Positions 9,822 to 26,905 of a stretch of DNA of 64,000 nucleotides are shown here, one piece after another. The notes below the pieces were generated by a model. It was not told where the DNA came from. It ran no database searches and saw only the letters and a program-made list of their open reading frames with translations. Made by a program: the position numbers and the translations under genes. How positions within the stretch are numbered: position 1 is the first letter of the stretch; each line of letters begins with the position of its first letter. This DNA is from Methylobacillus sp. (lineage in GTDB: Bacteria > Pseudomonadota > Gammaproteobacteria > Burkholderiales > Methylophilaceae), in assembly GCA_031285185.1 (NCBI GenBank), contig JAITWS010000053.1, positions 26,519 through 90,518 on the forward strand. Reading direction: 5' to 3'.

Positions 9822-10751
9822 ATGAAATTCGCTTTTTTCTTCCCCGGTCAGGGTTCGCAGTCGGTCGGCATGATGCAGGGTTTCGGCGATCAGGCCGTGG
9901 TGCGCGACACGTTCGCGGAAGCCTCCGATGTGCTCAAGCAGGATTTGTGGCGCATGGCGACCGAGGCCAACGAGGAACTCAACCAGACCGCGAATACCCA
10001 ACCGCTCATGCTGACCGCGGGCATTGCCGCGTGGCGCGCATGGCTGGAGGCGGGCGGAGCGCAGCCGAACATCATGGCGGGACACAGTTTGGGCGAATAT
10101 ACCGCGCTCGTCGCTGCGGGCGCGCTGGAATTTTCCGCCGCTTTGCCGCTGGTGCGTTATCGCGCCGAAGCGATGCAGGGCGCGGTGGCCGAAGGCGTGG
10201 GCGCGATGGCGGCCATTCTCGGGCTGGACGATGACGCGGTGCGCGCTGTGTGCGCCGAATCCGCGCAGGGCGAAGTGCTCGAAGCCGTCAATTTCAATTC
10301 GCCGGGGCAGGTGGTGATCGCGGGCGACAAGGCCGCGGTCGAACGCGGCATGGAAGCCGCCAAAGCCCGGGGCGCGAAACGCGCGTTGATCCTGCCGGTG
10401 AGCGTGCCGTCGCACTGCGCGCTGATGAAACCCGCCGCCGAAAAATTGGCGGCGTATTTGGCCGATGTCACGATTTCCGCGCCCGCGATTCCGGTGTTGC
10501 ATAATGCGGATGTCTGTTCCTACAATGATGCCGACAAGATCAAAGACGCGCTGGCGCGCCAGCTTCACAGCCCGGTGCGCTGGGTGGAAACAGTGCTGGC
10601 CGTGGCCGCGCAAGGCATCAACCACGCGGCGGAATGCGGGCCGGGCAAGGTGCTCGCGGGGCTGAACAAACGCATCGTCGCGGATATGACGTGTTTCGCG
10701 CTGACCGGCAATGATGCGGTCGCGGAAGCCAAAAACCAACTCAAGGCATAA
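9822..10751 (+). CDS. fabD: Malonyl-CoA:ACP transacylase
   Basis: FFFPGQGSQ, GHSLGEY, VSVPSHC. Confidence 0.97.
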   Translation: MKFAFFFPGQGSQSVGMMQGFGDQAVVRDTFAEASDVLKQDLWRMATEANEELNQTANTQPLMLTAGIAAWRAWLEAGGAQPNIMAGHSLGEYTALVAAGALEFSAALPLVRYRAEAMQGAVAEGVGAMAAILGLDDDAVRAVCAESAQGEVLEAVNFNSPGQVVIAGDKAAVERGMEAAKARGAKRALILPVSVPSHCALMKPAAEKLAAYLADVTISAPAIPVLHNADVCSYNDADKIKDALARQLHSPVRWVETVLAVAAQGINHAAECGPGKVLAGLNKRIVADMTCFALTGNDAVAEAKNQLKA

Positions 10752-11504: not shown

Positions 11505-11536
11505 AAAAAAGCAGCACCCCCCGGATGCTGCTTTTT
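11505..11536 (+). terminator. Rho-independent terminator after fabG
   Basis: AAAAAAGCAGCA...TGCTGCTTTTT hairpin with T tract. Confidence 0.75.
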
Positions 11537-11887: not shown

Positions 11888-13126
11888 TTGTCCAAACGCA
11901 AGGTAGTCGTTACCGGCCTGGGTATCATCGCGCCGGTCGGTAACACCGTGGCGGATGCCTGGGCTGACATCATCGCCGGAAAATCCGGCATTACCCGCAT
12001 CACCAAGTTCGATGCCTCCGCGTTTGCCTCGCAAATCGCGGGCGAGGTGAAAGGGTTTGATGTGGATCAATACCTGTCGCCCAAGGAATCGCGCCGGATG
12101 GACGTATTCATCCAGTACGGCCTCGCGGCGGGTATTCAGGCGGTGCGGGACGCGGGAATCGAAGCGACCGAAGCCAACGCCGAGCGTATCGGCGTCAGCA
12201 TCGGCTCCGGCATCGGCGGTCTGCAACTGATCGAAGATACCGAATCCGTTTATCGGGAAGCAGGGCCGCGCAAAATCTCGCCCTTCTTCATTCCCGGAAC
12301 CATCATCAACATGATCTCCGGCAACCTCTCGATCATGTGCGGCTTCAAAGGCCCCAACATCGCCATCGTCACCGCCTGCACCACGGCCACTCATGCGATT
12401 GGTGACGCGGCGCGACTCATCGAATACGGCGATGCCGATGTGATGGTCGCGGGCGGCGCGGAAGCCGCCATCACGCAACTCGGCGTAGGCGGTTTCGCCG
12501 CCGCGCGCGCTCTCTCCACCCGCAACGACGACCCGGCCACCGCCAGCCGCCCGTGGGACGCGGAACGCGACGGCTTCGTCATCGGCGAAGGCGCGGGCGT
12601 GCTGGTGCTGGAAGAATACGAACACGCCAAAGCGCGCGGCGCGAAAATCTACTGCGAACTCGCGGGCTTCGGCATGAGCGCCGACGCCTACCACATGACC
12701 TCGCCCAGCGAAAGCGGCGAAGGCGCGGCGCGCTGCATGAAAAACGCGCTACGCAACGCGGGCATCAACGCGGATCAAGTGGATTACGTCAACGCGCACG
12801 GCACATCCACCCAGGCGGGCGACGTGGCGGAAACACAAGCGGTCAAAAGTTTCTTCGGCGACAACGCCAAAAAAATCGCCGTAAGCTCCACCAAATCCAT
12901 GACCGGTCATTTGCTGGGTGCGGCGGGCGGCATAGAAGCCGTATTCTCCGTGCTCGCCCTGCGCGACCAGATCGCCCCCCCCACGATCAACCTCCACAAC
13001 CCCGACCCGCAGTGCGATCTCGACTACGTTCCCAACACCGCCCGCGACATGAAGATAGACATCGCCATCTCCAACTCCTTCGGCTTCGGCGGAACCAACG
13101 GAACCCTCGTTTTTCGCAGGACGTAA
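11888..13126 (+). CDS. fabF: 3-oxoacyl-ACP synthase II
   Basis: [35 protein letters not shown]; TTG start. Confidence 0.96.
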
Positions 13127-13144: not shown

Positions 13145-13180
13145 AAAAAGCCGATTCGATGAATCGGCTTTTGTTTTTTC
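13145..13180 (+). terminator. Rho-independent terminator after fabF
   Basis: AAAAGCCGATTC-GAT-GAATCGGCTTTT followed by GTTTTTT. Confidence 0.85.
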
Positions 13181-13296
13181 ACTTTGCACCTTTCCTGTTA
13201 AAGGGTAAGGGGTTTATCCGGGAACAATTTTTCGCCTCCTGTAGAAGAAATAGCTATCGCAATAAAAATAACGTATTCATTATTTCGGGGGAGGGG

Positions 13297-13332
13297 TTGA
13301 CACAACAAAACGATATACTTAAGATTGTCGTT
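13297..13332 (+). promoter_or_regulatory. Leaderless sigma70 promoter with overlapping palindromic operator (copy A)
   Basis: TTGACA(13297)-17-TAAGAT(13320)-7-ATG(13333); imperfect palindrome AACGATATACTT|AAGATTGTCGTT at 13309-13332; no Shine-Dalgarno. Confidence 0.75.
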
Positions 13333-13353
13333 ATGAAAACAGATCACATCCGC
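13297..13353 (+). repeat. 57-bp imperfect direct repeat, copy A (copy B at 21464-21520)
   Basis: Ungapped manual alignment gives 44/57 identities, spanning the promoter and codons MKTDHIR vs MKSDYTR. Confidence 0.9.
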
Positions 13354-14472
13354 ATGAGTTTGCCGACGAAGGCGGTCGCCGCGCATCGCCGTCCGGTTTT
13401 TCGGCCATCGCAATCCGCATTTGCGGCGGAGTTGCGTGGGGCGGCGCGGGCTTGGCTGGATGCGCGGCATGACCATCAATACGCCAACGTGACGACCATG
13501 TTAAAAGTGGCGGCGATGGCGGGAGTTGCCGTTTTGTTTTATCTCGCTGCGCTGAGTGCGACGCGCGGTTATGCCTACATCGGCTTGTATGCCGGTTTTG
13601 CCGTCACGGCGGTGTTGCTGGCCGCGAACAGTTTGCACGATGCTTCGCATGGCGCGTTTTTTCGTTCGCGCGGTTTGAACGCCGCGATGATGCGCGTTAC
13701 CGCTGTTGCGCTGGGCATAGAGCCTGCGTATTGGCAGGTGCGGCATGTGCGTTATCACCACCCGAACGCGAATATCGAACACATTGATCTTGATACCGCC
13801 GCGAACCGCTTTTTGCGCCAGACACCGTTTCAGCCGTGGTTTCCCCAGTTTCGCTTTCAGCATCTTTACTGGCCGGTCATCGCCGGACTTTCCATGCCGT
13901 ATATCGGGCTGGTCTATGATTGGTCTGATCGCTTCGGCCTGACACCGCTCGCGCGGGATCGGGTGTTGCGCGGGTTTGGTGGCTGGCTGCGATTTATCGC
14001 CTCGAAACTGGCGCATTTTTTTCTGTGTTTGGCGCTCCCGCTTTGGCTTGTCGCGCCTTCCGTCGGTTATGGGGCGGTGATCGGCGGTTATGTGCTCGGG
14101 CAATTGTTGGCATCATGCTTGTTAGTCACGCTTATCCTCGGCACGCACTGGGCGGATACGCAGTTTTATGACATCAGCGACGGCGCGCCTTTGCCGCATA
14201 CGCGGGAAGAGCACGCCTTTCTGACGTGTTGCGACTGGGAGGCATCGCCCCGCATTATGGGCGGGCTGTTGGGCGGTCTGAATTTGCATCTCACGCATCA
14301 TCTGTTTCCGCATTTCCATCATCGTCACTATCCGGCGCTGGCGAAAATTGTCGGGCAAGTCGCCGCGCGTCACGGATTGCCATACCGCTGTTTGAGCTAC
14401 CGCGAACTCCTGCGCGCGCAACAGCATTTTCTTGAATCAATGGGGCAAAAGCCTGTGACTTCCCATGTGTGA
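13333..14472 (+). CDS. Membrane fatty acid (acyl-CoA/acyl-lipid) desaturase
   Basis: Three His boxes LHDASH, RHVRYHH, HLTHHLFP; hydrophobic segments. Start placed at 13333 (alternative 13354); the ORF-track start 13159 lies inside the fabF terminator. Confidence 0.88.
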   Translation: MKTDHIRMSLPTKAVAAHRRPVFRPSQSAFAAELRGAARAWLDARHDHQYANVTTMLKVAAMAGVAVLFYLAALSATRGYAYIGLYAGFAVTAVLLAANSLHDASHGAFFRSRGLNAAMMRVTAVALGIEPAYWQVRHVRYHHPNANIEHIDLDTAANRFLRQTPFQPWFPQFRFQHLYWPVIAGLSMPYIGLVYDWSDRFGLTPLARDRVLRGFGGWLRFIASKLAHFFLCLALPLWLVAPSVGYGAVIGGYVLGQLLASCLLVTLILGTHWADTQFYDISDGAPLPHTREEHAFLTCCDWEASPRIMGGLLGGLNLHLTHHLFPHFHHRHYPALAKIVGQVAARHGLPYRCLSYRELLRAQQHFLESMGQKPVTSHV

Positions 14473-15463
14473 TACGACCATTTCCCCGTTCCTGCCCATC
14501 GCCATCATCGCGACAGGCAAGGCGCTGCCTGCAATCAAACTCACCTCGACTGAACTCGACGCGCGATTTAAAAAGCCCGCAGGCTGGGCGCAAAAACATT
14601 CCGGCATCGAATATCGCCACCATGCGCGTGCCGATGAACGCCAATCCACGCTTGCGGCGCAAGCCTTGCGCGACGCGCTGGATCGCGGCAATGTCAATCC
14701 TGATTCCATTGATCTGCTGCTGTCGGCTTCGGGTGTGCAGGAACAGGCGTTGCCGTGCACCGCCGCGCTTGTGCTTGGCCAGGCCGGGCTGCGTCCCGGC
14801 ACGCCCGGGTTTGACATCAATGCGACCTGTCTGGGTTTTCTTGCCGCGCTGCGCGTTGCCGCGAGCCTGCTCAACACCTCGTCATACCGGCGCATTGCAA
14901 TCGTCGCGTCGGATCTCGCATCGCGCGGCATTGACTGGGACGATACGGAATCCTCGCTGATCTTTGGCGACGGCGCGGCGGCGGCGATCGTCGAGCGCGG
15001 GGACGGCGCGCGCGGTATCGAAGGTTATCGGCTCAACACATGGCCGGAGGGCGCGACATATTGCGAAATTCGCGCGGGCGGCACGCGCCGCACGCCACGC
15101 ACGGGCGCGGAGCCTTCCGATTTTCTGTTTCACATGGAAGGCAGACGGGTGCTCCGGCTGGGAACTGTCGCAACGGATGATCTGCTGGCCGGGTTGTTCA
15201 AGGAAACCGGCTTGTCGTTTAACGACATGGATGTGGTCGTGCCGCACCAGCCGAGTCCGCTCGGAATGCGTTATCTCGCCGAGCGCGTGCCGGATGATCG
15301 CATCGTCAACATTTATGCCACGCACGGCAATCAGGTCGCCGCTTCCATTCCCACCGCATTGCACGAGGCATTTGTAACGGGGCGCGCTCAGCCGGGTCGG
15401 CGGTTGATGCTGATCGGTACGGCGGGCGGCATTTCCGTGGGCGCGTTGATACTCAAATTATGA
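14465..15463 (+). CDS. FabH-like 3-oxoacyl-ACP synthase III / thiolase-fold condensing enzyme (accessory paralog)
   Basis: Cys-His-Asn triad: INATCLGF, VVPHQPS, HGNQVAASIP; FGDGAAA. Confidence 0.9.
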   Translation: MCDTTISPFLPIAIIATGKALPAIKLTSTELDARFKKPAGWAQKHSGIEYRHHARADERQSTLAAQALRDALDRGNVNPDSIDLLLSASGVQEQALPCTAALVLGQAGLRPGTPGFDINATCLGFLAALRVAASLLNTSSYRRIAIVASDLASRGIDWDDTESSLIFGDGAAAAIVERGDGARGIEGYRLNTWPEGATYCEIRAGGTRRTPRTGAEPSDFLFHMEGRRVLRLGTVATDDLLAGLFKETGLSFNDMDVVVPHQPSPLGMRYLAERVPDDRIVNIYATHGNQVAASIPTALHEAFVTGRAQPGRRLMLIGTAGGISVGALILKL

Positions 15464-16473
15464 CGACACTGGTTACCGGCGCCACCGGCGGCTTGGGAAG
15501 AAATGCCGTCGAATGGCTCGCCTCGCAACAACAAGCTGTGCGCGGCTCGGGACGCAACCTTGCCGCCGGAGCCGCGTTGCAGGCGCAGGGAATCGAGTTT
15601 GTCGCCGCCGATCTTGCAACGGCGCAGAGCGAAGAGATTGATCGTTTGCTTGATGGCGTGGAAACGGTCTGGCATTGCGCGGCCTTGTCGTCGCCGTGGG
15701 GGCGCTACGAAGATTTTTATGCCGCCAACGTCACCGCCACCACGCGGCTTGCAGGAATGGCGGCGATGCGCGGTGTGCGGCGTTTCATCCACATTTCAAC
15801 GCCGTCCATTTATTTCGATTACCGGCATCGCGCGAATATCCCGGAAACATTTCGCCCGGCGCGTTTCGTCAATCATTACGCGCACACCAAGGCGCTGGCC
15901 GAGGAGGGCATACGCGCGCTTGCCGCGCGTCATCCGCGGACAACATTTGTCATGCTTCGACCGCGCGGCATTTTCGGTCCGCATGATCGCGTGCTGTTGC
16001 CGCGCATTCTGCGTGTTTTGCACGAGCGCAACGGACGTTTGCCTTTGCCTCGCGGCGGCGCGGCACGGCTTGATCTTACTTATGCCGGCAATGTCGTTCA
16101 TGCGATGCAGCTCGCCACGACCCGCGCCGACATTGTGTCGGGGGAGGCGTTCAACATCACGAACGGGGAGCCGGTCATGTTGCGCGAAACGCTCGCAGCA
16201 TTGCTCGCGGCGCTTGGTGTGGATTGCCGTATTGTGGCTTTGCCCTATCCCGTTCTCAATTTCGTCGCGCGCGCGATGGAAGCCCGCGCGGCATTGACCG
16301 GCAAGGAACCGTCATTCACGCGCTACGGCATGGGCGCGTTGAATTACGACATGACGCTCGACATCGGCAAGGCATGGCGCGTGCTTGGTTACCGGCCTGT
16401 CGTGACGATGGACGAAGGCATCGCGGCAACAGCTCTGAGGATGCGGAAACATGGCGACGCTCACGGTTTTTGA
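15460..16473 (+). CDS. Extended SDR, NAD-dependent epimerase/dehydratase (3-beta-HSD / OleD-like)
   Basis: VTGATGGLG, WHCAA, HISTPSIY, YAHTK (YxxxK), RPRGIFGPHD. Confidence 0.9.
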   Translation: MTTLVTGATGGLGRNAVEWLASQQQAVRGSGRNLAAGAALQAQGIEFVAADLATAQSEEIDRLLDGVETVWHCAALSSPWGRYEDFYAANVTATTRLAGMAAMRGVRRFIHISTPSIYFDYRHRANIPETFRPARFVNHYAHTKALAEEGIRALAARHPRTTFVMLRPRGIFGPHDRVLLPRILRVLHERNGRLPLPRGGAARLDLTYAGNVVHAMQLATTRADIVSGEAFNITNGEPVMLRETLAALLAALGVDCRIVALPYPVLNFVARAMEARAALTGKEPSFTRYGMGALNYDMTLDIGKAWRVLGYRPVVTMDEGIAATALRMRKHGDAHGF

Positions 16474-17257
16474 AGCGGGTTATTGCACGCACATTGCCTG
16501 CATGGCGTTGCGCGGCGCGGGTTTTTCCGTGTGCCGTTTCCCCGCGCGCGCCTGGCTGATCGAAACCGCGCGAGGCCGCTGGCTGTGGGATACGGGCTAT
16601 GCCTCGCATTTTCTCGATCACACGCGGCACGGTGTTTTTGCCTGGTATCGGCGCGTCACGCCCGTGCATTTCAATGCCGGTGACGCGCTGGCATGGCAAC
16701 TGCGCGAACGCGGTTTGTCCGCGAACGATCTCACCGCTGTGATTCTTTCGCATTTTCACGGCGACCATATTGCCGGTTTGCGCGATTTGCAAGGCGCGCC
16801 GACCTGTCTCAGCGGCGCGGGATGGAACGCCACGCGTTCGTTGCGCGGCATTCGCGCATTACGCAAAGGTTTCGTGCCGGGTCTGATCCCGCCGGATTTT
16901 GAAACATCCATGACCGCCGTCGAGACGTTTGATCGCGTCGCGCTGCCTGCCGAACTTGCGCCGTTCACGCACGCCTACGCTGTGCCGGGCAGCGACGGCG
17001 AATTGCTGATCGTCGAGTTGCCCGGCCATGCGGCCGGACATCTCGGCGCGTTTGTCGCCACGGCGCAAGGCTGGGTCATGCTGGCATCGGATGCCGCATG
17101 GTCGCCCGCCGCTTACCGAAATCTCGTCGGCCCGTCGCGCCTGACCCACGCCATCATGGACGATGCGACGCAGTATTACGACACGCTGCATAAACTGAAT
17201 CAGCTTGACCGGCAGAAGAACGTGAAAATTCTCCTCACCCATGAAGGCGCTTTGTGA
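16451..17257 (+). CDS. Metallo-beta-lactamase-fold hydrolase
   Basis: LWDTGY, SHFHGDHIAG (HxHxDH), LPGHAAGH, ASDAAW, terminal THE. Confidence 0.9.
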   Translation: MATLTVFEAGYCTHIACMALRGAGFSVCRFPARAWLIETARGRWLWDTGYASHFLDHTRHGVFAWYRRVTPVHFNAGDALAWQLRERGLSANDLTAVILSHFHGDHIAGLRDLQGAPTCLSGAGWNATRSLRGIRALRKGFVPGLIPPDFETSMTAVETFDRVALPAELAPFTHAYAVPGSDGELLIVELPGHAAGHLGAFVATAQGWVMLASDAAWSPAAYRNLVGPSRLTHAIMDDATQYYDTLHKLNQLDRQKNVKILLTHEGAL

Positions 17258-18543
17258 TGCGGCTTGCGAACGTGCTCCGGTTTTACTGGAAAACGAAACA
17301 TCTGCGCTTTGGCAGCCGCGCGGCGCTCGAACATCACCAGCAGCGACAGCTTCAACGCTTCATGTCGAAGCATCTTGCGCGCAGCCAGTATTTCGCCCCT
17401 TTCGCCGGATATCCGCTTGATGCCTGGCCGATCATGACGAAAGTGACGATGATGGAACAATTTGACCGTCTCAACACGGCCAAACTCAAGCTCGCGGATG
17501 TGCTGGCGTGCGCGCTTGAAGCCGAGCGCACGCGCGACTTCACGAAAACGGTCGACGGTTACAGCGTGGGGCTTTCGTCGGGCACTTCGGGATCGCGCGG
17601 CGTGTTCGTGGTCAGCCCGGCGGAGCAGGCGCGTTGGGCGGGCGTGATGCTTGCCCGACTGCTGCCGCGCGGTTTGTTTTCCGGCGAGCGCGTCGCGCTG
17701 TTTTTGCGGGCGAACAACAATCTGTATTCCGCCATTCGCAGCCCGTGGCTATCGTTTGAATTTTTTGATCTCATGGAACCGCTTGCAAGTCAGTTCACGC
17801 GGCTGAGCCGCTACGCGCCAACGATCATCGTTGCTCCCGCGCAAGTCTTGCGCGCGCTGGCCGAGGCAAAGTCGCGCGGTCAGGCGGATATTCATCCGCG
17901 TCGCGTCATTTCAGGCGCGGAAGTGCTGGAGCCGTTTGACCGCGATTTTCTCGCGCGCGCATTCGGCGCGGTGGGCGAGGTTTATCAGGCAACCGAAGGG
18001 TTTCTTGGTTCGACTTGCCCGCACGGCACGCTGCACCTGAACGAAAGCCATGTTTATTTTGAACCGCAATGGCTGGATGAACAGCGTTTTGTTCCCGTCA
18101 TCACCGACTTCACGCGCGTGACGCAGCCCATCGTGCGTTACCGGCTGGACGATATTCTGGTGAAACGCGACGCGCCTTGTCCTTGCGGCAGTCACGAAAT
18201 GGCGATAGCGCGCATTGAAGGCCGATGCGACGACCTTTTGCGTTTTCCGGGGCGTGACGGCATGGTGGAGGTATATGCCGATGCGATCTCGCGCGCGCTC
18301 GCACAAATTTTGCCGATCACGGCGGATTACCGCCTCATGCAAACCGGCAAAACGCGGCTTGCGCTCCATGTCGAAGGCGTGGGTGATGAGGCGCTGGCGA
18401 ATTGCCGCGCGCATCTGGAACGTTTTTTGATGCGACAGGGCGTGCAAACAGAACGTTTGATCTGGTCTTTGGACATGCGCTTGCCCGCCGCCGATTTCAG
18501 CATGAAACGTCGGCGCATCATGCGCGCCGGAGACGCGCGATGA
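17254..18543 (+). CDS. Adenylate-forming enzyme, F390 synthetase / PaaK-related
   Basis: P-loop GLSSGTSGSRG, YQATEGFLG, RYRLDDIL, IEGRCDD. Confidence 0.88.
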   Translation: MMRLANVLRFYWKTKHLRFGSRAALEHHQQRQLQRFMSKHLARSQYFAPFAGYPLDAWPIMTKVTMMEQFDRLNTAKLKLADVLACALEAERTRDFTKTVDGYSVGLSSGTSGSRGVFVVSPAEQARWAGVMLARLLPRGLFSGERVALFLRANNNLYSAIRSPWLSFEFFDLMEPLASQFTRLSRYAPTIIVAPAQVLRALAEAKSRGQADIHPRRVISGAEVLEPFDRDFLARAFGAVGEVYQATEGFLGSTCPHGTLHLNESHVYFEPQWLDEQRFVPVITDFTRVTQPIVRYRLDDILVKRDAPCPCGSHEMAIARIEGRCDDLLRFPGRDGMVEVYADAISRALAQILPITADYRLMQTGKTRLALHVEGVGDEALANCRAHLERFLMRQGVQTERLIWSLDMRLPAADFSMKRRRIMRAGDAR

Positions 18544-19175
18544 GATCCGCGTCATTCCGAATACGCATCGCCATGATGTGCGTCGGCTGGGGAACGGTGG
18601 GGCTATGCTACGCAATCGGGAGCCTCACGCCGCGCGCTGTTCATGTTTTGCAAGAAACCGCGCTGGATCGTCTCATCCCGTTCAATGTGTCCGCGATAGG
18701 ACTTTATCTGTCTTTTTTCCTGCTGGTTCCGGTTGCCTATCTTTTTGCCGCTCCCGCGCGGCTCAAGTCCTTGATGTTTGCCATGCAACTCTCTGCCGTG
18801 CTGGCGGCCATCGTGTTCGTGCTCTATCCGACCACGCTGATTTATCCCGTTGCTTCGTCGTCCACGCCTGGCGGCGCAGTGCTGAACATGCTCGCCGGAT
18901 TTGATTCGTCCAATAATTGTCTGCCTTCGCTGCACGGCGCGTTGACGCTGCTTTGCGTTGTCGCGCTGTGGCAGCGGGAAAAAATGTGGCGCAATATTTT
19001 CATGCTGCTGTGGGCGCTGGGCATCGCATGGGCTGTCGTGCAGACGCGGCGGCATCTCGTCCTCGACCTCGGCGCGGGATTGCTGCTCGGCGCCGGTTGC
19101 GCGTGGCTGGCGGCGCGCGTGTCCAAACCGGAGAACATCATGACATTTTTCCGAAAGTTGAAATGCACGTCCTGA
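18540..19175 (+). CDS. PAP2-superfamily membrane phosphatase/phosphotransferase (AUR1/IPC synthase-like subgroup)
   Basis: About six hydrophobic helices; NNCLPSLHGA and TRRHLVLD catalytic-type motifs; ATG overlaps the upstream stop (ATGA). Confidence 0.8.
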   Translation: MRSASFRIRIAMMCVGWGTVGLCYAIGSLTPRAVHVLQETALDRLIPFNVSAIGLYLSFFLLVPVAYLFAAPARLKSLMFAMQLSAVLAAIVFVLYPTTLIYPVASSSTPGGAVLNMLAGFDSSNNCLPSLHGALTLLCVVALWQREKMWRNIFMLLWALGIAWAVVQTRRHLVLDLGAGLLLGAGCAWLAARVSKPENIMTFFRKLKCTS

Positions 19176-20311
19176 TTTTGGGCGCGCGCGCTCCGGCATG
19201 TCTGGAATGGTCGCGCTGTTTTCACGCGGTCGGATGGCGGGTCAGCGTCGGAGATTCGCTGCGCTGGCCGCTTGTGCGATTTTCCGCTGCGGCGCATGAA
19301 TTTATCCGTCTGCCCGAACCGCGCCGTTCTCCGGCGGACTGGATAGATGCGCTGGCAAAAGAAGTTGTGGCGCGTGACATTAATCTCGTGTTGCCGACAT
19401 GCGAGGAAGCGTTTTATCTCGCGCATGGCCGCGACCATATTCCCGCCCGCATCATGGTGCCGCCTTTTGCGCTGATGCATGAATTGCATCACAAAGGTCG
19501 TTTCGCGGAAAAGGTCAAGGGCTGGGAGATTGAAGCGCCGGAAACTCACCTTCTCGAAAAAGCCGGGGATGTCGAGGCATTCGCGGCAACGCATGATACG
19601 CGCGACTGGGTATTCAAACCGGCTTACTCGCGCTTCGCGCACCGCGCATTGCTGCGTCCCGATCCGGCACGGGTGATGCGATTGCATCCGACTTCGGCAC
19701 AACCGTGGATTGCCCAGCGCCACATCGCGGGGCGTGAGCATTGCAGCTACAGTTTGTTGCTTGACGGCAGGCTTACCGCGCACACTTGTTATCATCCCCG
19801 CTACCGGGTTGGGGGCGGTTCCGGCATCTGGTTTGAGCCGACCAACCCGCCGTTGATCCGGGCGTTCGTCGAGCAATTCGGCAGGGCAACCGGCTATACC
19901 GGACAAGTGGCTTTTGATTTCATCGAGCAGGCCGATGGTTCGTGTCATGTGCTGGAATGCAACCCCCGCGCGACCAGCGGCATCCATCTGTTCGCCGATC
20001 AACCGGAAGCGGTGGTGGCTGCGTTGCTGGGCGAGCGGGGCGTGCTGATACCACATTCCGCGCCGCGCCAGGTTGCCTCCGCCATGCTTTTGTTTGCCGG
20101 TTGCAAACATCGGTTCAATGCAAAATTCCGGCGCGATTTCCGCGCCGCAAGCGATGTGATTGCGCGGGCAAATGATTTCAAGCCGCTTCCGGCGCAACTT
20201 CTCGGCCTTATGGAAATTTCCGTCCGGGCACTGCGTCGGCGATGCGGTCTTTTGGCGGCTGCAACCGCGGATATCGAGTGGAATGGTCAGTCGCTGGAGA
20301 AGCGATTGTGA
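19163..20311 (+). CDS. ATP-grasp domain protein
   Basis: LPTCEEAFY, LHHKGRF, VFKPAYSRFA, WIAQRHIAGREH, GQVAFDFIE, LECNPRATSG. Confidence 0.85.
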   Translation: MHVLILGARAPACLEWSRCFHAVGWRVSVGDSLRWPLVRFSAAAHEFIRLPEPRRSPADWIDALAKEVVARDINLVLPTCEEAFYLAHGRDHIPARIMVPPFALMHELHHKGRFAEKVKGWEIEAPETHLLEKAGDVEAFAATHDTRDWVFKPAYSRFAHRALLRPDPARVMRLHPTSAQPWIAQRHIAGREHCSYSLLLDGRLTAHTCYHPRYRVGGGSGIWFEPTNPPLIRAFVEQFGRATGYTGQVAFDFIEQADGSCHVLECNPRATSGIHLFADQPEAVVAALLGERGVLIPHSAPRQVASAMLLFAGCKHRFNAKFRRDFRAASDVIARANDFKPLPAQLLGLMEISVRALRRRCGLLAAATADIEWNGQSLEKRL

Positions 20312-21441
20312 AATTGCTGACCGTCGAGGAATTTGCCGCAGGCGAGGGCGGAAAATGCCAACCGCTTTTAGCCGCGTTCGCGCGCCATGCGCCCGGCGCA
20401 ATCCGCAATGTCTCCACGCGCATGAGCATTCTCGCGACCGGCACGCATTTTTTTCCGGTGAGCATCAACACTGGCGATGAGCGCATCGGCAACAGTTATG
20501 TGGTATCTCCATACACGACTTATACCGGCTACGCGCAATATGAAATCGCCCAGCTTGGTGCGGCGTGTCTGACCTGGCCTTTGCGTATGCTGGTAAAAGC
20601 CGTGGGGCTTGGGCTGACGGCGGCACGTGTTGACCAGTTGGTGCAGGTGAATAATTGGCTGCTCTCCACCAATCTGTATCCGGCCAATTGGGAAGGCGCG
20701 GATTTGCCCGAGATGACGGATTTGTTGACACGGGAATTCCCGGAACATGCCATCAGTTTCCGCTCGCTCAATCAATTCAGCAATGCGAAGCTGATCGGGC
20801 GTTTGGAAAATCTGGGTTATCTCGCGCTTCCCAGTCGGCAGGTTTATCTGTTCGATGCGCGCAAGGGCGAACAGTCGGAGTTTTGGCATTGCCGCGATAA
20901 CCATAATGATGCCCGTTTGTCGCGCAACACGTCCTATGAGATTGTGCCGGGGAACGCGCTTGCGGATACGGATTACGCGCGTCTGGAACATCTCTACAAC
21001 CTTCTTTATCTGGAAAAATATTCGCCATTAAATCCGCAGTTCAGCGCCGACTGGCTGCGCGCCGGTCAGCGTGACGGCTGGCTGGAACTGCGCGCGCTAC
21101 GCAGCGAAGAAGGCCGCATGGACGGCGTTGCGGGCTGGTTCGGCAATTCGCATATTTTTACGACGCCCATCGTCGGTTACGATACCGCGCTGCCGCAAAA
21201 GTTGGGCTTGTATCGCCTGATTACCCACCTGAGTCTGCAAGAAGCCGCGCAACGACGCTGCCTGTTCAACGGCAGCGCCGGAGCCGCCCGCTTCAAACGC
21301 TTGCGCGGCGGCGTACCTGCAATCGAATATAGTCTGGTCTTTGTTCGCCACTTGCCCGTGGCGCGACAACAGGCTTGGCGTTCGCTCGTGCGTTTGCTGC
21401 GCGGCATAGGCGTGCCGCTCATGCAAAAGTTCAGGCTGTGA
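20308..21441 (+). CDS. Probable GNAT/FemAB-fold acyl- or aminoacyl-transferase
   Basis: C-terminal TPIVGYD...LGLYRL...GSAGAARFKRLRGG pattern resembles GNAT/Fem folds; GTG overlaps the upstream stop. Confidence 0.6.
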   Translation: MKLLTVEEFAAGEGGKCQPLLAAFARHAPGAIRNVSTRMSILATGTHFFPVSINTGDERIGNSYVVSPYTTYTGYAQYEIAQLGAACLTWPLRMLVKAVGLGLTAARVDQLVQVNNWLLSTNLYPANWEGADLPEMTDLLTREFPEHAISFRSLNQFSNAKLIGRLENLGYLALPSRQVYLFDARKGEQSEFWHCRDNHNDARLSRNTSYEIVPGNALADTDYARLEHLYNLLYLEKYSPLNPQFSADWLRAGQRDGWLELRALRSEEGRMDGVAGWFGNSHIFTTPIVGYDTALPQKLGLYRLITHLSLQEAAQRRCLFNGSAGAARFKRLRGGVPAIEYSLVFVRHLPVARQQAWRSLVRLLRGIGVPLMQKFRL

Positions 21442-21463
21442 TAAATTTCGGCACGAAAAACAC

Positions 21464-21499
21464 TTGACACCACGAAACGACATAACTAAGATCGTCGTC
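21464..21499 (+). promoter_or_regulatory. Leaderless sigma70 promoter with palindromic operator (copy B), probable ArsR autoregulatory site
   Basis: TTGACA(21464)-17-TAAGAT(21487)-7-ATG(21500); ACGAC-N12-GTCGT overlapping the -10 element. Confidence 0.75.
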
Positions 21500-21520
21500 A
21501 TGAAATCCGACTACACCCGT
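21464..21520 (+). repeat. 57-bp imperfect direct repeat, copy B (copy A at 13297-13353)
   Basis: 44/57 identities with copy A, no gaps. Confidence 0.9.
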
Positions 21521-21844: not shown

Positions 21845-24061
21845 ATGTCCAATATCGCACATGCAAAAGCGCAAACCTCGGCATGGTGGCGCACTCTGAT
21901 TCTTTGGGCGTTGCGCGGCCTCGCGCGGGTGGTGTTCCGCGTGCGGGTGCGCGGTGTGGAACATGCGCTGGCGGGCGCTCGGGAGGCGGGGGATCGCTTG
22001 CTCATCATCGCCAATCACGAATCGTTTTTGGATGGAACCTTGCTCGGTCTTTTTCTGCCGCTGCCCAAGGAGCCGGTATTCGTGGTGCATACGGAGGCCG
22101 TCAAACACAGGTTCCGGCGCTGGAGTCTGGATATATTGTGCGATTACCTTACGGTTGATCCGAATAATCCGATGGCGATCAAGCAGGTGATTCAACTGGT
22201 CGAATCGGGTCGTCCGGTGGTGATTTTCCCGGAAGGGCGCATCACCACGACCGGCAGTTTGATGAAAGTGTATGACGGCCCGGCGTTCATCGCGGCCAAG
22301 ACCGGCGCGACGCTGTTGCCGGTGCGCGTGGACGGCGCGATGCACAGTTATTTTTCGCGCATGAACAAAGGGAAAGAACCGCGCAAACTGTTTCCGCGCA
22401 TCACGCTCACGTTGTCACCGCCCACGAAACTCTCCATGCCGGAAGCGGAAAGTTCGCAGGAGCGCCGCCACAAGGCGGGCGATGCGATGCGTCGTTTGAT
22501 GCTGGAAATGGCGATGACGCGACCGGCTTCCGACACTTTGTACGGCGCACTGTGCGACACGATGGATCACTACGGACGCGACCGTCGCGTGCTCGAAGAC
22601 GTGAAGGAAATCGAATACAGCTATCAGGATGTGCTCAAGATGGCGCTCGCGCTCGGGCGCGTGGTCGGGCGCATGAGTCGCCGCGACGAGCGCGTGGGTG
22701 TGTTGCTGCCGAATCTCGCGGCGACCGTCGGGCTGTTTTTTGGATTGAGCGCGTTGCGTCGCGTGCCCGCGATGCTCAATTACACGGCGGGCACGGATGG
22801 AATGCAGGCCGCGTGTTCCGCCGCCGAAATCAAATTGCTCGTGACTTCGCGCGCCTTTGTCGAGCAAGCCAACATCGCCGACAAAATCGCCGCGCTGCAA
22901 GGCGTGGAGCGCATCGTTTATCTGGAAGATTTGCGCGAGCAACTCACGCTGTTCGATAAAATCTGGCTGGTGTGCTGGGGTTTGCGTTTTCCGCGTTGCG
23001 CGCAAATCAAAACCTCGACCGAAGATGCCGCCGTGGTGCTGTTCACTTCCGGCTCCGAAGGCAAGCCCAAGGGCGTGGTGTTGTCGCACCGCGCGATTCT
23101 CGCCAATGTCGCGCAAATCCGCGCCATCATTGATATTTCCGCCGACGACAAAATGCTCAACGCGCTGCCGATTTTTCATTCCTTCGGCCTCACCGGCGGC
23201 ACATTGTGGCCGTTGTTTTCGGGCATGAATCTGTTTCTCTATCCCACGCCGCTGCATTACCGCGTGATTCCCGAACTCGCTTATGACCGCAACTGCACGC
23301 TGCTGCTCGGAACCGGAACCTTTCTCGGCCACTACGCGAACAACGCGAATCCGTATGATTTTTACAAGATGCGCTACGTCATCGCAGGCGCGGAAAAACT
23401 CGCACCCGCCGTGCGCGATCTGTGGTTTGAAAAATTCGGCATCCGCATTTACGAAGGCTACGGCGCGACCGAAACCGCGCCGGTGATCGCGGTCAACACG
23501 CCCATGGGTTATTGCAGCGGCACGGTGGGACAATTTTTGCCGGGCATCGAATACCGCTTGCAAGCCGTGCCGGGCATAGACCACGGCGGTCGTCTGCATG
23601 TGCGCGGCCCCAATGTGATGAGCGGCTATCTCAAGGCCGACCAGCCCGGCGTGCTGCAACCGCCGGTGGCCGACGAACTCGGCGCGGGCTGGTACGATAC
23701 CGGCGACATCGTGGATGTGGACGAAGACGGTTTTGTGCGTATTCTTGGCCGCGTCAAACGCTTCGCCAAAATCGCCGGTGAAATGGTGAGTCTGGAATCC
23801 GTGGAAAAAATCGCGCAAAAAGCCGCGCCCGACGCGCAACATGCCGCGAGCAGCCAGCCCGACGAAAGCAAGGGCGAGGCGCTGGTGTTGTTCACAACGG
23901 ATGCCAATCTCGACCGCGCGGCGTTGCAGGAAGCCGCGCGCAGCTTGGGCATTCCCGAATTGGCCGTGCCGCGCAAAATCGCGCGCGTGGAAGAGTTGCC
24001 GCTGCTCGGCACGGGAAAAATTGATTACGTCACGCTGAAACGCATGGCGGAAACGGTTTGA
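21845..24061 (+). CDS. aas: Bifunctional 2-acyl-GPE acyltransferase / acyl-ACP synthetase
   Basis: N-terminal PlsC-type domain (IANHESFLDG, FPEGRIT); C-terminal AMP-binding domain (LFTSGSEGKPKGV, YEGYGATE, YDTGD, GRVKRFAKIAGEMVSL). Confidence 0.92.
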   Translation: MSNIAHAKAQTSAWWRTLILWALRGLARVVFRVRVRGVEHALAGAREAGDRLLIIANHESFLDGTLLGLFLPLPKEPVFVVHTEAVKHRFRRWSLDILCDYLTVDPNNPMAIKQVIQLVESGRPVVIFPEGRITTTGSLMKVYDGPAFIAAKTGATLLPVRVDGAMHSYFSRMNKGKEPRKLFPRITLTLSPPTKLSMPEAESSQERRHKAGDAMRRLMLEMAMTRPASDTLYGALCDTMDHYGRDRRVLEDVKEIEYSYQDVLKMALALGRVVGRMSRRDERVGVLLPNLAATVGLFFGLSALRRVPAMLNYTAGTDGMQAACSAAEIKLLVTSRAFVEQANIADKIAALQGVERIVYLEDLREQLTLFDKIWLVCWGLRFPRCAQIKTSTEDAAVVLFTSGSEGKPKGVVLSHRAILANVAQIRAIIDISADDKMLNALPIFHSFGLTGGTLWPLFSGMNLFLYPTPLHYRVIPELAYDRNCTLLLGTGTFLGHYANNANPYDFYKMRYVIAGAEKLAPAVRDLWFEKFGIRIYEGYGATETAPVIAVNTPMGYCSGTVGQFLPGIEYRLQAVPGIDHGGRLHVRGPNVMSGYLKADQPGVLQPPVADELGAGWYDTGDIVDVDEDGFVRILGRVKRFAKIAGEMVSLESVEKIAQKAAPDAQHAASSQPDESKGEALVLFTTDANLDRAALQEAARSLGIPELAVPRKIARVEELPLLGTGKIDYVTLKRMAETV

Positions 24062-24136: not shown

Positions 24137-24760
24137 ATGAAATCGCTATTTTTCGCCGTTGTTTTGATGGTCGCCGGGATGTCGTCGGCATGGGCATTGC
24201 ATCCGTGCAATGGCACGCCGGGGGAACATGTCGTGGGAGCAACTGCCGACGACAATAGCGCTGTGGCGTTCTGCGAGGCACCGTTGGGGCCTCCCCCAAC
24301 TTTGGAGGAGCTGCAAGCGATGCGTGCAGTTCAGCAGAGAGAGGATGCTATCAAGGCGCTGGCAACCACCGGGGACGGCAAGTGGACGCACTACGATAAT
24401 TTTTGCGCGACATCGTATGTCAGCAGGGACGGCATGATTACGCTGGGCGTGTTCAAGGGCAAGCCCTATGTGTTTTTCGCCGGTGTTGATATTCCTGTTC
24501 CGTCCGGGGTGAAAACGGTTCCGGTCAAGATCGAGCAACCCGGTCAGAAAACGATCATGACCGAAGCCTTGTGGGGCGCCGGACAATTGACCGGACTTGG
24601 CGGGCTGCAAGTTTTTTACGGCAAAAACTTTTTCCCGGACATTCTCGACAAGGGCGATTTCAAAGTCAGCATCGGCGACACGCTTGTTTTCAAAGGCGGC
24701 TGGCGCAACGCAGGCGAGGCGCGCGAAAAATTGAAATGCGCCGTGAAAGAAATCAAATGA
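24137..24760 (+). CDS. Secreted hypothetical protein
   Basis: RBS GGAG; signal peptide MKSLFFAVVLMVAGMSSAWA; four Cys; no family recognised. Confidence 0.7.
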   Translation: MKSLFFAVVLMVAGMSSAWALHPCNGTPGEHVVGATADDNSAVAFCEAPLGPPPTLEELQAMRAVQQREDAIKALATTGDGKWTHYDNFCATSYVSRDGMITLGVFKGKPYVFFAGVDIPVPSGVKTVPVKIEQPGQKTIMTEALWGAGQLTGLGGLQVFYGKNFFPDILDKGDFKVSIGDTLVFKGGWRNAGEAREKLKCAVKEIK

Positions 24761-24807: not shown

Positions 24808-25398
24808 ATGAGACCACAAGATTATTTCGTCAACATCATACTCAGCGGCGTTTTGATCGTCGGCGCGTACCAGTTTTATTTTTTCACGCAGCGTCATCCG
24901 CTCAGAAAAGCACGCGCGTTCGCGTCGGCGCTGGATGAGCGGATTCCGTTCTGGCCGGTGTGGGGCTGGGTTTACAGCTTTTTGTATTACCCCGCGATTT
25001 TGTATCTGAACTGGATCGTCGGCGACGCGCATCAATTCACGATGATGGCGTTCAGTTTCATTGTGCTGCTGTTCATGCAGATGGCGTGTTTTTATATTTA
25101 CCCGGTCGAAACACCCGCGCATTGGCGCGCGATCAACACAGGCCGCAACGCTTCGGAAAGGTTTCTGCGGTTCGTGCAAAAAATTGACGCGCCGAGCAAT
25201 TGCTTTCCGAGTATGCACGTTTCCGTCGCCATGTTGACCGCCTTGCACGCGCAGCCCGTGATGGGGGCGTGGGTGTTTGTTTTTCCGGCGCTCATCGCGG
25301 TTTCGTGCGTATTCACCAAACAACATTACCTCATGGATCTGCCTTCCGGCGCCTTGCTCGGCGTGGCGGGCTATGAGATTTACCGCGTGCTTTTATGA
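24808..25398 (+). CDS. PAP2-superfamily membrane phosphatase/phosphotransferase (second paralog)
   Basis: SNCFPSMHVS, KQHYLMD; hydrophobic; overlaps the downstream MFS gene by 4 bp. Confidence 0.8.
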   Translation: MRPQDYFVNIILSGVLIVGAYQFYFFTQRHPLRKARAFASALDERIPFWPVWGWVYSFLYYPAILYLNWIVGDAHQFTMMAFSFIVLLFMQMACFYIYPVETPAHWRAINTGRNASERFLRFVQKIDAPSNCFPSMHVSVAMLTALHAQPVMGAWVFVFPALIAVSCVFTKQHYLMDLPSGALLGVAGYEIYRVLL

Positions 25399-26747
25399 GC
25401 CAGACGACACAAACCGCGCAGAAAGAACACTCCCAATTCCGGCTGTTGCGGAAGCGGCGTTTTCTGCCGCTTTTCATCACGCAATTTCTCGGCGCGTTCA
25501 ACGACAACGCCTACAAAACTTCGCTGGTCATGCTGATTACCTTCGGCGCTTCGTGGTCGGCGATGAAGCCGGAAGTGCTGACCAATCTCGCGGGCGGGAT
25601 TTTCATGGTTCCCGCGTTTTTGTTTTCGGCCACCGCCGGGCAACTGGCCGACAAATTCGACAAGGCGCGGCTGGCGCGCTGGGTCAAGGCGCTGGAGATA
25701 TTGATTATTCTGATTGTGGCGCTGGGTTTCTGGCTGCACAGTTTGACGTGGTTGTTGTCGGCGCTGTTTTTGCTCGGCACGCACGCCTCGTTTTTCGGCC
25801 CCATCAAATACGCGATTTTGCCGCAGCATTTGCGCCCGCAGGAACTGGTCGGCGGCAACGCGCTTGTGGATGCGGGAACCTTCATCGCCATTTTGCTCGG
25901 CACGATCAGCGGCGGCTTGCTCGCGCGTATGCCGGACGGCGAAGCGTGGATCGTCGGCATTTGTCTCACCGTCGCGCTCGCCGGTTTTGCCGCAAGCTGG
26001 AAAATTCCCGCCGCGCCCGCGCCCATGCCGGAACTCAAAATCTCCCTCAACCCGCTGGTCGAAGCCTGGCGCTGCATCGGGTTCGCGCGGCGCGAACGCA
26101 GCGTGTTGCTCTCCATCCTCGCGATTTCATGGTTCTGGTTTTACGGCGCGACGCTGCTCGCGCAATTTCCGCTCTTCGCCAAAAATGTGCTGGGCGGCGA
26201 CGAGGACGCATTCACGCTGCTGCTCACCGTGTTGTGCGTGGGCATCAGCGTGGGTTCGTTGCTGTGCGAAAAACTCACGCGCCGCCGCGGCAAAACCGTG
26301 GAGCCGGGGCTGGTTCCCATGGGCGCATTGGGCATGTTGATTTTCGGCATTGATCTGGCTTTCGCCGCGCCCGCGCATCCCGCCGCCATGGGAATGACCA
26401 TCACCACGCTGCTGCAACAAGACGGGGTGTGGCGCGTGCTGCTCGACCTGATGATGATAGGCGGCTTCGGCGGCGTTTATTGCGTGCCGCTTTACGCGCT
26501 GGTTCAGCAACGCAGCGACGAATCCTGCCGCGCGCGCGTGATCGCCGCCAACAACATTCTCAACGCGCTCTTCATGGTCGCGGGCGCGCTGGCCGCCATC
26601 GCCATCCTGAGCTGGGGACACCGCACCATCCCCGCGCTTTTCCTGCTGATCGCCGTGCTGCACGCCGGAGTCACCCTCTACATCTTCAGCGTGGTTCCCG
26701 AATTTTTAATTCGCGCGTTGGTGTGGTTGGGATTGAGAAGGGAATAG
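25395..26747 (+). CDS. lplT: MFS transporter, LplT-like lysophospholipid flippase
   Basis: FLPLFITQFLGAFNDNAYK, GQLADKFDK, FFGPIKYAILPQ, RVIAANNILNA; clustered with aas. Confidence 0.8.
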   Translation: MSQTTQTAQKEHSQFRLLRKRRFLPLFITQFLGAFNDNAYKTSLVMLITFGASWSAMKPEVLTNLAGGIFMVPAFLFSATAGQLADKFDKARLARWVKALEILIILIVALGFWLHSLTWLLSALFLLGTHASFFGPIKYAILPQHLRPQELVGGNALVDAGTFIAILLGTISGGLLARMPDGEAWIVGICLTVALAGFAASWKIPAAPAPMPELKISLNPLVEAWRCIGFARRERSVLLSILAISWFWFYGATLLAQFPLFAKNVLGGDEDAFTLLLTVLCVGISVGSLLCEKLTRRRGKTVEPGLVPMGALGMLIFGIDLAFAAPAHPAAMGMTITTLLQQDGVWRVLLDLMMIGGFGGVYCVPLYALVQQRSDESCRARVIAANNILNALFMVAGALAAIAILSWGHRTIPALFLLIAVLHAGVTLYIFSVVPEFLIRALVWLGLRRE

Positions 26748-26815: not shown

Positions 26816-26905
26816 GGAAGCGTGGCCGAGTGGTTTAAGGCAGCGGTCTTGAAAACCGCCGAGGGTTTACGCCCTCCGTGAGTTCGAATCTCACCGCTTC
26901 CGCCA
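26816..26905 (+). tRNA. tRNA-Ser (anticodon TGA)
   Basis: GGAAGCG acceptor stem, anticodon arm GCGGT-CTTGAAA-ACCGC, long variable arm, GTTCGAATC, encoded CCA end. Confidence 0.97.

Follow-up and report, generated by a model that had tools for sequence, protein, structure and literature searches.

Probable capture of a leaderless arsR promoter by an acquired desaturase operon in Methylobacillus

The window analysed here is a 64,000-nt stretch of contig JAITWS010000053.1 from a Methylobacillus sp. genome (G000; a 2.1-Mb assembly of 140 contigs), a genus that NCBI taxonomy places within the Methylophilaceae. It holds a cassette of eight genes, from a fatty-acid desaturase to a GNAT-like protein, followed by a unit that begins with arsR, encoding an ArsR/SmtB-family regulator, continues with aas and ends with the gene of an LplT-like transporter (Table 1). 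An earlier note, made from the sequence alone, had described the cassette as an eight-gene operon; all eight genes were confirmed, and they overlap or abut one another. Because a terminator lies 3′ of the preceding gene, fabF, the cassette needs a promoter of its own, and a promoter scan from this terminator to the desaturase found a single promoter-like site, which is homologous to the promoter and first codons of arsR. We propose that the 5′ end of arsR was probably copied in front of the acquired operon in the common ancestor of this genome and a sister species, giving it a promoter, a putative operator and a leaderless translation start.

Table 1 Features of the desaturase cassette, the arsR unit and the two promoter modules, in window coordinates
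Feature	Position	Strand	Details
fabF	11888-13126		TIGR03150, 680 bits
Intrinsic terminator 3′ of fabF	13146-13172	+	12-bp stem followed by a T run; strong
Module copy A	13297-13353	+	-35 TTGACA 13297-13302, -10 TAAGAT 13320-13325, ATG 13333, codons 2-7 KTDHIR
Putative operator A, AACGATATACTTAAGATTGTCGTT	13309-13332		24-bp palindrome, -10 to start codon; 9/12 pairs
Fatty-acid desaturase, 379 amino acids from the predicted leaderless ATG	13333-14472	+	PF00487; ATG 13354 is the ancestral start position
FabH-like ketoacyl-ACP synthase III	14465-15463	+	
NAD-dependent SDR/epimerase	15460-16473	+	Best NCBIfam match an OleD-type reductase, under cut-off
Metallo-beta-lactamase-fold (MBL) hydrolase	16451-17257	+	
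F390-synthetase-related adenylate-forming enzyme	17254-18543	+	TIGR02304, 507 bits
PAP2-family phosphatase	18540-19175	+	Last gene of the six-gene core cassette
PRK06849-type protein	19163-20311	+	Not in the G004 cassette
GNAT-like protein	20308-21441	+	Weak Acetyltransf_6 match; start GTG 20308 or ATG 20242; not in G004
Module copy B, ancestral arsR promoter	21464-21520	+	-35 21464-21469, -10 21487-21492, ATG 21500, codons 2-7 KSDYTR
Putative operator B, AACGACATAACTAAGATCGTCGTC	21476-21499		6/12 pairs
arsR, ArsR/SmtB-family regulator, 103 amino acids	21500-21811	+	
aas, bifunctional acyl-ACP--phospholipid O-acyltransferase / acyl-ACP synthetase	21845-24061	+	NF005959, 957 bits
207-amino-acid protein	24137-24760		No Pfam match
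PAP2 phosphatase of the arsR-aas unit	24808-25398	+	
LplT-like MFS transporter, end of the arsR-aas unit	25395-26747	+	

We refer to the copies of this promoter module as A (before the desaturase), B (before arsR), C (on contig C37) and D (on contig C13), and mark with primes (A′, B′, D′) their counterparts in the sister species, the metagenome-assembled genome (MAG) Methylobacillus sp. Pmx449_bin13 (G004), which belongs to the same GTDB genus. Copies A and B are identical at 44 of 57 positions without a gap, and immediately outside the aligned segment the flanks fall to background identity. When copy A with 100-nt flanks was compared with the whole 2.1-Mb genome by blastn, copy B was recovered with E = 1e-7 (56 nt, 78.6% identity). 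The promoter scan placed TTGACA-17-TAAGAT at 13297-13325 and at 21464-21492; bar one near 11535, these are the best plus-strand promoter matches between 11.5 and 26 kb. The two start codons, ATG 13333 and ATG 21500, each lie 7 nt past the end of the -10 hexamer, and the intervening bases (TGTCGTT in A, CGTCGTC in B) contain no Shine-Dalgarno sequence. In the whole window, ACGAY-N12-RTCGT has just two matches, 13310-13331 and 21477-21498, over the two -10 and start regions. The ATG is present in A, B, C, A′, B′ and D′ and in every arsR promoter of the family matched in the scan, at a distance of 6-7 nt from the -10 element throughout. An Rfam search of 11-27 kb found no RNA family at either site, its sole match being a tRNA at 26816-26902.

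The likeness continues beyond the start codon. Copy A opens with MKTDHIR, which runs in frame into a second ATG at 13354 (MSLPTKAV), and copy B with MKSDYTR; 12 of the 18 bases after the ATG are identical. In all four pairings of A or A′ with B or B′ the post-ATG agreement is 10/16, against 3-8/16 for the other copies. Codons 2-7 of copy A match the arsR consensus of other organisms in 13-14 of 18 bases. Only three of the 983 ATGAA[AG]-initiated open reading frames (ORFs) of at least 80 codons in G000, A and B included, reach the score of A against the consensus of locus L050, which gives an empirical P of about 0.003. The homology between A and B then stops exactly at the native ATG of the desaturase. 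By these comparisons, roughly codons 1-7 of arsR are part of the segment copied into A. The ungapped match, the promoter layout without a Shine-Dalgarno sequence, the paired motif and the similar codons running in frame into ATG 13354 had all been reported in the earlier note, and our searches reproduced each of them. A G-rich run just 5′ of the -35 element, GGGGGAGGGG (13285-13296), is common to A, A′ and the arsR promoters of loci L049 and L050 and is missing from B and B′. The copied segment may thus have begun a few bases further upstream; the run is of low complexity and carries little weight.

Which of the two copies is ancestral can be read from their distribution. A search for ArsR in 60 relatives found arsR followed directly by aas in about 20 genera, and nearly all of those arsR genes are preceded by TTGACA, 29 nt and ATG. 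The arsR promoters of the family contain a 28-bp palindrome, ATAACTAaATAAcTAaTTATaTAGTTAT, closed by the first two bases of the ATG (12 of 14 pairs by eye). The window ArsR is about 55% identical to the ArsR of its own family and 77-85% identical to many 103-amino-acid proteins of Azoarcus, Accumulibacter, Zoogloeaceae and Rhodocyclaceae MAGs, which start MK[STKN]DYTR. As comparison loci we used two of Rhodocyclales type (L044 and L045, from a Rhodocyclaceae bacterium and Azoarcus) and two metagenome contigs (L049 and L050). All four have a B-type promoter before arsR and starts of the form MK[SKP]DYTR (for example TTGACTGAACGTAACGATATAACTAAGATCGTCGACATGAAGAAAGATTACACCCGT); aas and an MFS transporter follow at L044, L045 and L050, the L049 contig being too short to show the genes downstream of arsR. 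The aas of the window unit is 50-64% identical to that of the family (L016-L033). Because the same architecture stands before arsR-aas both in the family and in Rhodocyclales-type genomes, copy B is on this evidence a conserved unit of long standing, with codons 2-7 that belong natively to ArsR. This conservation agrees with the direction of copying given in the earlier note, from arsR to the desaturase. The note had also expected relatives lacking the cassette to show fabF followed directly by a single promoter-arsR-aas. The single promoter-arsR-aas is there; fabF lies within 1.5 kb upstream of arsR in none of 20 relatives without the cassette.

The arrangement arsR-aas-(PAP2)-lplT with a leaderless, palindrome-embedded promoter was seen in about 20 Methylophilaceae genera (L016-L033) and in Rhodocyclales-type genomes (L044, L045, L050), and a literature search found no paper linking an ArsR to aas or lplT. 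With an ArsR closer to the Rhodocyclales type, the whole arsR-aas unit of G000 and G004 may have been replaced by horizontal transfer. The Rhodocyclaceae contig L044 has another operator-like palindrome, ATCGATGAAACTAAATTTATCGAC, in the interval from arsR to aas (about 10326-10366, minus strand).

The cassette has a far narrower range among the relatives. Its desaturase is present in only two of 61, G000 and G004, which are also the two carriers of copy A. The nearest desaturase homologues are in Burkholderiaceae-type genomes (a MAG, 74%; Paraburkholderia, 68%; Trinickia, 64%; Ralstonia, 56%). We compared nine cassette loci outside the genus, Trinickia, Paraburkholderia, Ralstonia and four metagenome contigs among them (L002-L006, L046-L048), and the six-gene core desaturase-FabH-SDR-MBL-F390-PAP2 is kept at every one examined. 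None of the nine has the module: with a position weight matrix built over the 41-nt core, their best scores are below 0, against 46-66 for real sites across genomes. None has an ArsR within 9-10 kb either. Copy A is the exact point at which synteny between G000 and G004 sets in, and the flank upstream of it is unrelated in the two species. An exact-pattern scan of metagenome contigs found no further copy A, and a looser pattern matched arsR promoters only. These distributions bear out the view in the earlier note that the cassette is the later arrival.

Far beyond these loci, the cassette desaturase has homologues in Serratia, Yersinia, Pseudomonas and Chromobacterium, and at some cassette loci a fatty-acid hydroxylase and a Metal_hydrol gene come next. 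As a set, the enzymes bear a loose resemblance to the Ole head-to-head condensation pathway; a literature search found no paper describing the desaturase-FabH-SDR-MBL-F390-PAP2 cluster. The genes for the PRK06849-type and GNAT-like proteins (19163-21441) and for the 207-amino-acid protein (24137-24760) are present in G000 and missing from the otherwise syntenic G004 locus, and look like recent insertions into both operons. A larger duplication taking in more than the module was considered and rejected: the cassette PAP2 and the PAP2 of the aas unit are only 31% identical over 70 residues and are not recent duplicates.

The junction left its mark on the desaturase. In 35 orthologous desaturases, 6-11 residues precede the conserved RPxF motif, with starts such as MMPLTPKPSLRRPRF, MPTKTPLPKPAF, MRKLSIFPRPVF, MMPLTPKPSL and MPTKTPLPKP. 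The window protein has 20 residues before RPxF from the first ATG and 13 from the second, which aligns with the orthologue starts; it is thus about 7 residues longer than its orthologues, none of which (0/35) has the extension. That ATG 13354 is the original start, as the earlier note proposed, is therefore what the orthologues indicate. Orthologues beginning with MKTDHIR-like residues would have counted against capture, and only one comes near: it starts MKNDF, aligned at the native start and not in the extension, which we treat as a coincidence. In G004, copy A′ reads TTGACACTATAAAACGATAAACTTAAGATTATCGTTATGAAAACAGACCAC; it translates as MKTDHACTTKPEKGAPMHRRPVF, equal in length to the window's MKTDHIRMSLPTKAVAAHRRPVF and in the same frame. 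As far as HRRPVF, both species have preserved the frame and the length, and MKTDH is identical with one synonymous change. ATG codons stand at positions 1 and 8 in G000 and at positions 1 and 17 in G004, which has ACG at position 8, so that the first is the only shared start. No Shine-Dalgarno sequence precedes ATG 13354, and the gene call for the window contig in the sequence collection is the 379-amino-acid form. Taken together, these features suggest that the leaderless ATG 13333 would be the desaturase start in use.

The putative operator is a 24-bp palindrome running from AACGA to TCGTT, which contains the -10 element and ends at the ATG. Out of 12 possible pairs, A′ forms 11, A 9, C 8, B 6, D′ 6, D 4 and B′ 3; the sites before the cassette are the best palindromes and the site of arsR itself is weaker. 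The symmetry of A′ points to selection for binding and fits a working operator better than a decaying relic. Across genomes the position of the half-sites stays constant and their sequence varies with the ArsR lineage: most of the family has AACTA, two genomes (G002 and G003) have GACTAA, and the G000/G004 lineage and Rhodocyclales-type genomes have ACGA or TCGA. A fixed position with changing half-sites is consistent with co-evolution of protein and site.

ArsR/SmtB repressors such as SmtB, CzrA and CadC are autoregulated through imperfect inverted repeats of the 12-2-12 type over their own promoters. The window ArsR resembles them in being a winged-helix protein of about 100 amino acids with a palindrome over the -10 and +1 of its own operon. 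It scores 42.4 bits against PF01022 (cut-off 22) and 60.6 bits against NF033788 (cut-off 55), and its best sequence matches in the PDB are the CadC-like Lmo1102, CzrA and SmtB (E about 1e-9 to 1e-6). Unlike them, it lacks the alpha3 Cys pair, with RLNVGQI opposite ELCVCDI of Lmo1102, and its cargo is lipid remodelling (aas, PAP2, lplT) and not metal efflux. The C-terminal HYVHAEC is not conserved in orthologues of the family; in the Rhodocyclales-type subfamily the final Cys is common, not universal. ArsR may respond to membrane-lipid status, and it would repress all module promoters by occluding the -10 and +1.

Copies A and B are not the only ones in the genome. The motif ACGAY-N12-RTCGT has 21 sites genome-wide, mostly in coding DNA; other spacings with both arms in the same codon phase are equally common, and we rejected the short motif as a specific marker. 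Only the weight matrix over the 41-nt core sets the real copies apart: the sites in G000 score 66 (A), 65 (C; C37:21725, minus strand), 62 (B) and 35 (D; C13:32321, minus strand), the next best position scoring 21. Identity between module copies is 72-84% over a span from -36 to +24. The earlier note had the cassette bracketed by a duplication: the homologous pair is real, and it is not unique, as the module stands at two further loci.

Copy C reads TTGACATGATAAAACGATATAACTAATCTTGTCGTTATGAAC, and its ATG opens a 20-codon ORF, downstream of which come a normal Shine-Dalgarno sequence, a run of signal-peptide proteins and a dienelactone hydrolase. Within G004, the homologue closest to the C37 gene (43% identity) lacks the module and has a Shine-Dalgarno leader of the ordinary kind. 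Copy D is degenerate, with ATT for ATG and GCCTG as its right operator arm; downstream of it, on the minus strand of C13 from 32321, are two ABC-transporter genes, an Lgt-like gene and a radical-SAM gene. Its G004 orthologue D′, on contig C55, is well kept and has the same upstream flank, and the ABC genes are absent. The ATG of D′ opens a 9-codon ORF (MIAGQQPSA; G004:C55 about 15760-15860, L039 7774-7860), and the stop of this ORF overlaps the start codon of the Lgt-like gene (ATGA), a start that lacks a Shine-Dalgarno sequence. This mini-ORF may drive the Lgt-like gene by termination-reinitiation, and we note the D′ locus as a candidate for leaderless mini-ORF coupling. A radical-SAM protein with an HMPTM zinc ribbon follows the Lgt-like gene at this locus.

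By their distribution, A, B and D are older than the split between G000 and G004, and C is specific to G000. The arsR-type site occurs exactly once in 12/12 Methylophilaceae and 12/12 Azoarcus-relative genomes holding it. Because these 24 related genomes have one site each, multiplication of the module is, within this comparison, peculiar to the lineage, and it looks like growth of a regulon by copying a module of 40-60 bp. A broader reading is that 41-57 bp (the -35 element, the operator with its -10, and an AUG at +1) form a self-sufficient portable expression unit that was copied repeatedly, its vestigial AUGs opening leaderless mini-ORFs. A probably lipid-responsive, non-metal ArsR would in this way have passed from autoregulator of one operon to regulator of several envelope and lipid operons; we put this forward tentatively, as a possibility and not yet as a probability.

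The history we propose begins with an old arsR-aas-(PAP2)-lplT unit headed by arsR, whose sigma70-type promoter would have its -10 and +1 inside a palindrome of 24-28 bp, the presumed ArsR operator. Transcripts are predicted to start at the A of the ATG (13333 and 21500), which would make the mRNAs leaderless. In the common ancestor of G000 and G004, the six-gene cassette would have arrived by horizontal transfer beside arsR, and a stretch of about 57-65 bp at the 5′ end of arsR, reaching from the -35 element through codon 7, would then have been duplicated before the cassette and fused in frame to the native ATG of the desaturase. The copied piece would supply promoter, repressor site and translation start together, so that the foreign operon could be transcribed, come under the control of the resident repressor and do without a Shine-Dalgarno sequence for its translation. 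Two other operons are preceded by this module too, there lacking the arsR codons, and the lineage may thereby have built a small ArsR regulon from its own promoter. The likeliest route would be a tandem duplication bounded by arsR codon 7 and a point immediately 5′ of the desaturase ATG, with the upstream or first cassette copy lost afterwards; a microhomology-mediated copy could serve as well. Promoter capture by either route is on record (PMC6614815, PMC3575422). The sequence comparisons establish the homology, its direction, age and distribution and the extension of the desaturase, and as an evolutionary reconstruction the proposal is well supported; with the amendments on uniqueness and on fabF, so is the evolutionary reading of the earlier note. 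ArsR binding, the transcription starts, leaderless translation and the route of copying are predictions that build on it.

Some of the evidence could instead be taken to mean that the cassette arrived already wearing the module, from a donor whose ArsR natively regulates it. Copy A matches the arsR promoters of the metagenome organisms L049 and L050 at 48/57 positions, against 44/57 for its neighbour B, and in G000 and G004 the arsR-aas unit, too, is of Rhodocyclales type and was perhaps imported. We consider this unlikely, however, given that the nine outside cassette loci have neither module nor neighbouring ArsR, that the outside desaturases lack the extension and that none of the 12 Azoarcus-relative genomes with an arsR site has a second one; even under import, the 5′ end of an arsR would remain the source of the module. 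That the two sites arose independently, by point mutation under selection and with a chance likeness of codons, is less likely still. Most of the 41-nt core (-35 element, 24-bp operator with its -10, ATG) is indeed functionally constrained, and C and D share with A and B nothing past ATGAA or ATGAT. Yet of the seven unconstrained bases that separate the -35 element from the operator, five are the same in A and B, and both copies have a -35-to-ATG spacing of 30 nt, specific to the lineage, against 29 in the rest of the family; the codon match to the arsR consensus and the exact end of the homology at the native ATG are further obstacles. Least credible of all is a miniature mobile element (MITE, Correia or REPIN-like) that carries a promoter. 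Three to four dispersed copies of 40-60 bp with an inverted repeat might suggest one, but the repeat is internal and coincides with the operator, away from the ends, the flanks show neither target duplications nor terminal repeats, and the few copies all stand in promoter position and orientation before an operon. In the 24 related genomes the single site is always at arsR, and we rejected this explanation.

It is also conceivable that copy A is a true duplicate and yet not the working start, the desaturase being translated from an internal start (13354, or M17 in G004) or transcribed mainly from another promoter, with the seven codons an untranslated relic. NCBI annotates the G004 protein from M17, which is preceded by a plausible Shine-Dalgarno sequence (GAAGGGGG), and the extension past MKTDH (residues 6-17) is poorly conserved, with 2 of 12 residues alike. 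Set against this, the internal starts are not common to both species and the one at 13354 lacks a Shine-Dalgarno sequence, the frame, the length and MKTDH have been kept, and the stretch from the fabF terminator to the desaturase holds no other promoter-like site; we regard the relic as improbable. The M17 start and the poor conservation of residues 6-17 nevertheless count against capture of a working leaderless start, as does the fact that the shared-start argument rests on one two-genome comparison. Other points weigh against the proposed history in the same way. Copy A is no closer to B than to foreign arsR promoters, so the donor could be another arsR-type promoter and not the resident one. 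No second cassette copy or junction microhomology (13353/13354) remains. Finally, the cassette ends 22 nt before copy B with no terminator between them, so that read-through from A into arsR-aas is likely and arsR may also be expressed in this way; since arsR has no Shine-Dalgarno sequence on such a transcript, ArsR synthesis may depend on leaderless mRNA initiated at B.

Capture of a resident promoter by duplication has precedents. The Cit+ rnk-citT rearrangement of the long-term evolution experiment is reportedly a case of it. The present locus is alike in that a gene without a suitable promoter became joined to a copy of a resident promoter and its first codons; no Cit+-type tandem array or readable junction microhomology was found at the cassette. 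In activation of ble-GFP in E. coli, silent or transferred genes gain promoters by duplication or deletion, and the capture junctions, formed by illegitimate recombination, often join a resident promoter and its first codons in frame (PMC6614815). Unlike these laboratory cases, the capture proposed here would be a natural and old event, found in two species with a single cassette copy left, and the captured piece, being leaderless, would also bring a translation start and a putative repressor operator.

Re-use of promoters has been described as putative mobile promoters, homologous upstream sequences before non-homologous genes that bring about transcriptional rewiring (Matus-Garcia, Nijveen and van Passel 2012; PMC3575422). 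In the same way, a homologous module stands here before genes for a desaturase, ArsR, secreted proteins and an ABC/Lgt-like operon in one genome. That screen covered -150 to -50 at no less than 80% identity over at least 50 nt and excluded cases reaching into coding sequence (PMC3575422); a module with 78.6% identity over 56 nt that spans -36 to +24, into coding sequence, would be missed. In contrast to the putative mobile promoters, the module can here be traced to a donor, arsR, and its copying given a direction. Differential RNA-seq of Cupriavidus metallidurans found regulator genes, an arsR among them, that are transcribed without a 5′ untranslated region (PMC7563307). The promoter geometry of the module likewise predicts +1 at the A of the ATG, but here an enzyme gene, that of the desaturase, and short upstream ORFs at other loci seem to have inherited the leaderless start.

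Promoter capture, promoter re-use, ArsR autoregulation and leaderless regulator mRNAs are each already known, and no paradigm is changed by their meeting at this locus. What is distinctive, as far as the sequences indicate, is that the captured promoter is leaderless, so that transcription, repression and translation start would move in one step, and that it is re-used at several loci. Most inferences on how acquired operons come to be expressed and regulated stay general; at this locus the sequence allows one to name donor promoter, recipient, junction and direction, and the event is old enough to have persisted in two species. In a leaderless promoter, the signals for transcription, regulation and translation start all fit within about 60 bp, which may ease its re-use. 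The locus also points to an undescribed and widely conserved ArsR-aas-lplT unit in Methylophilaceae and Rhodocyclales-type genomes.

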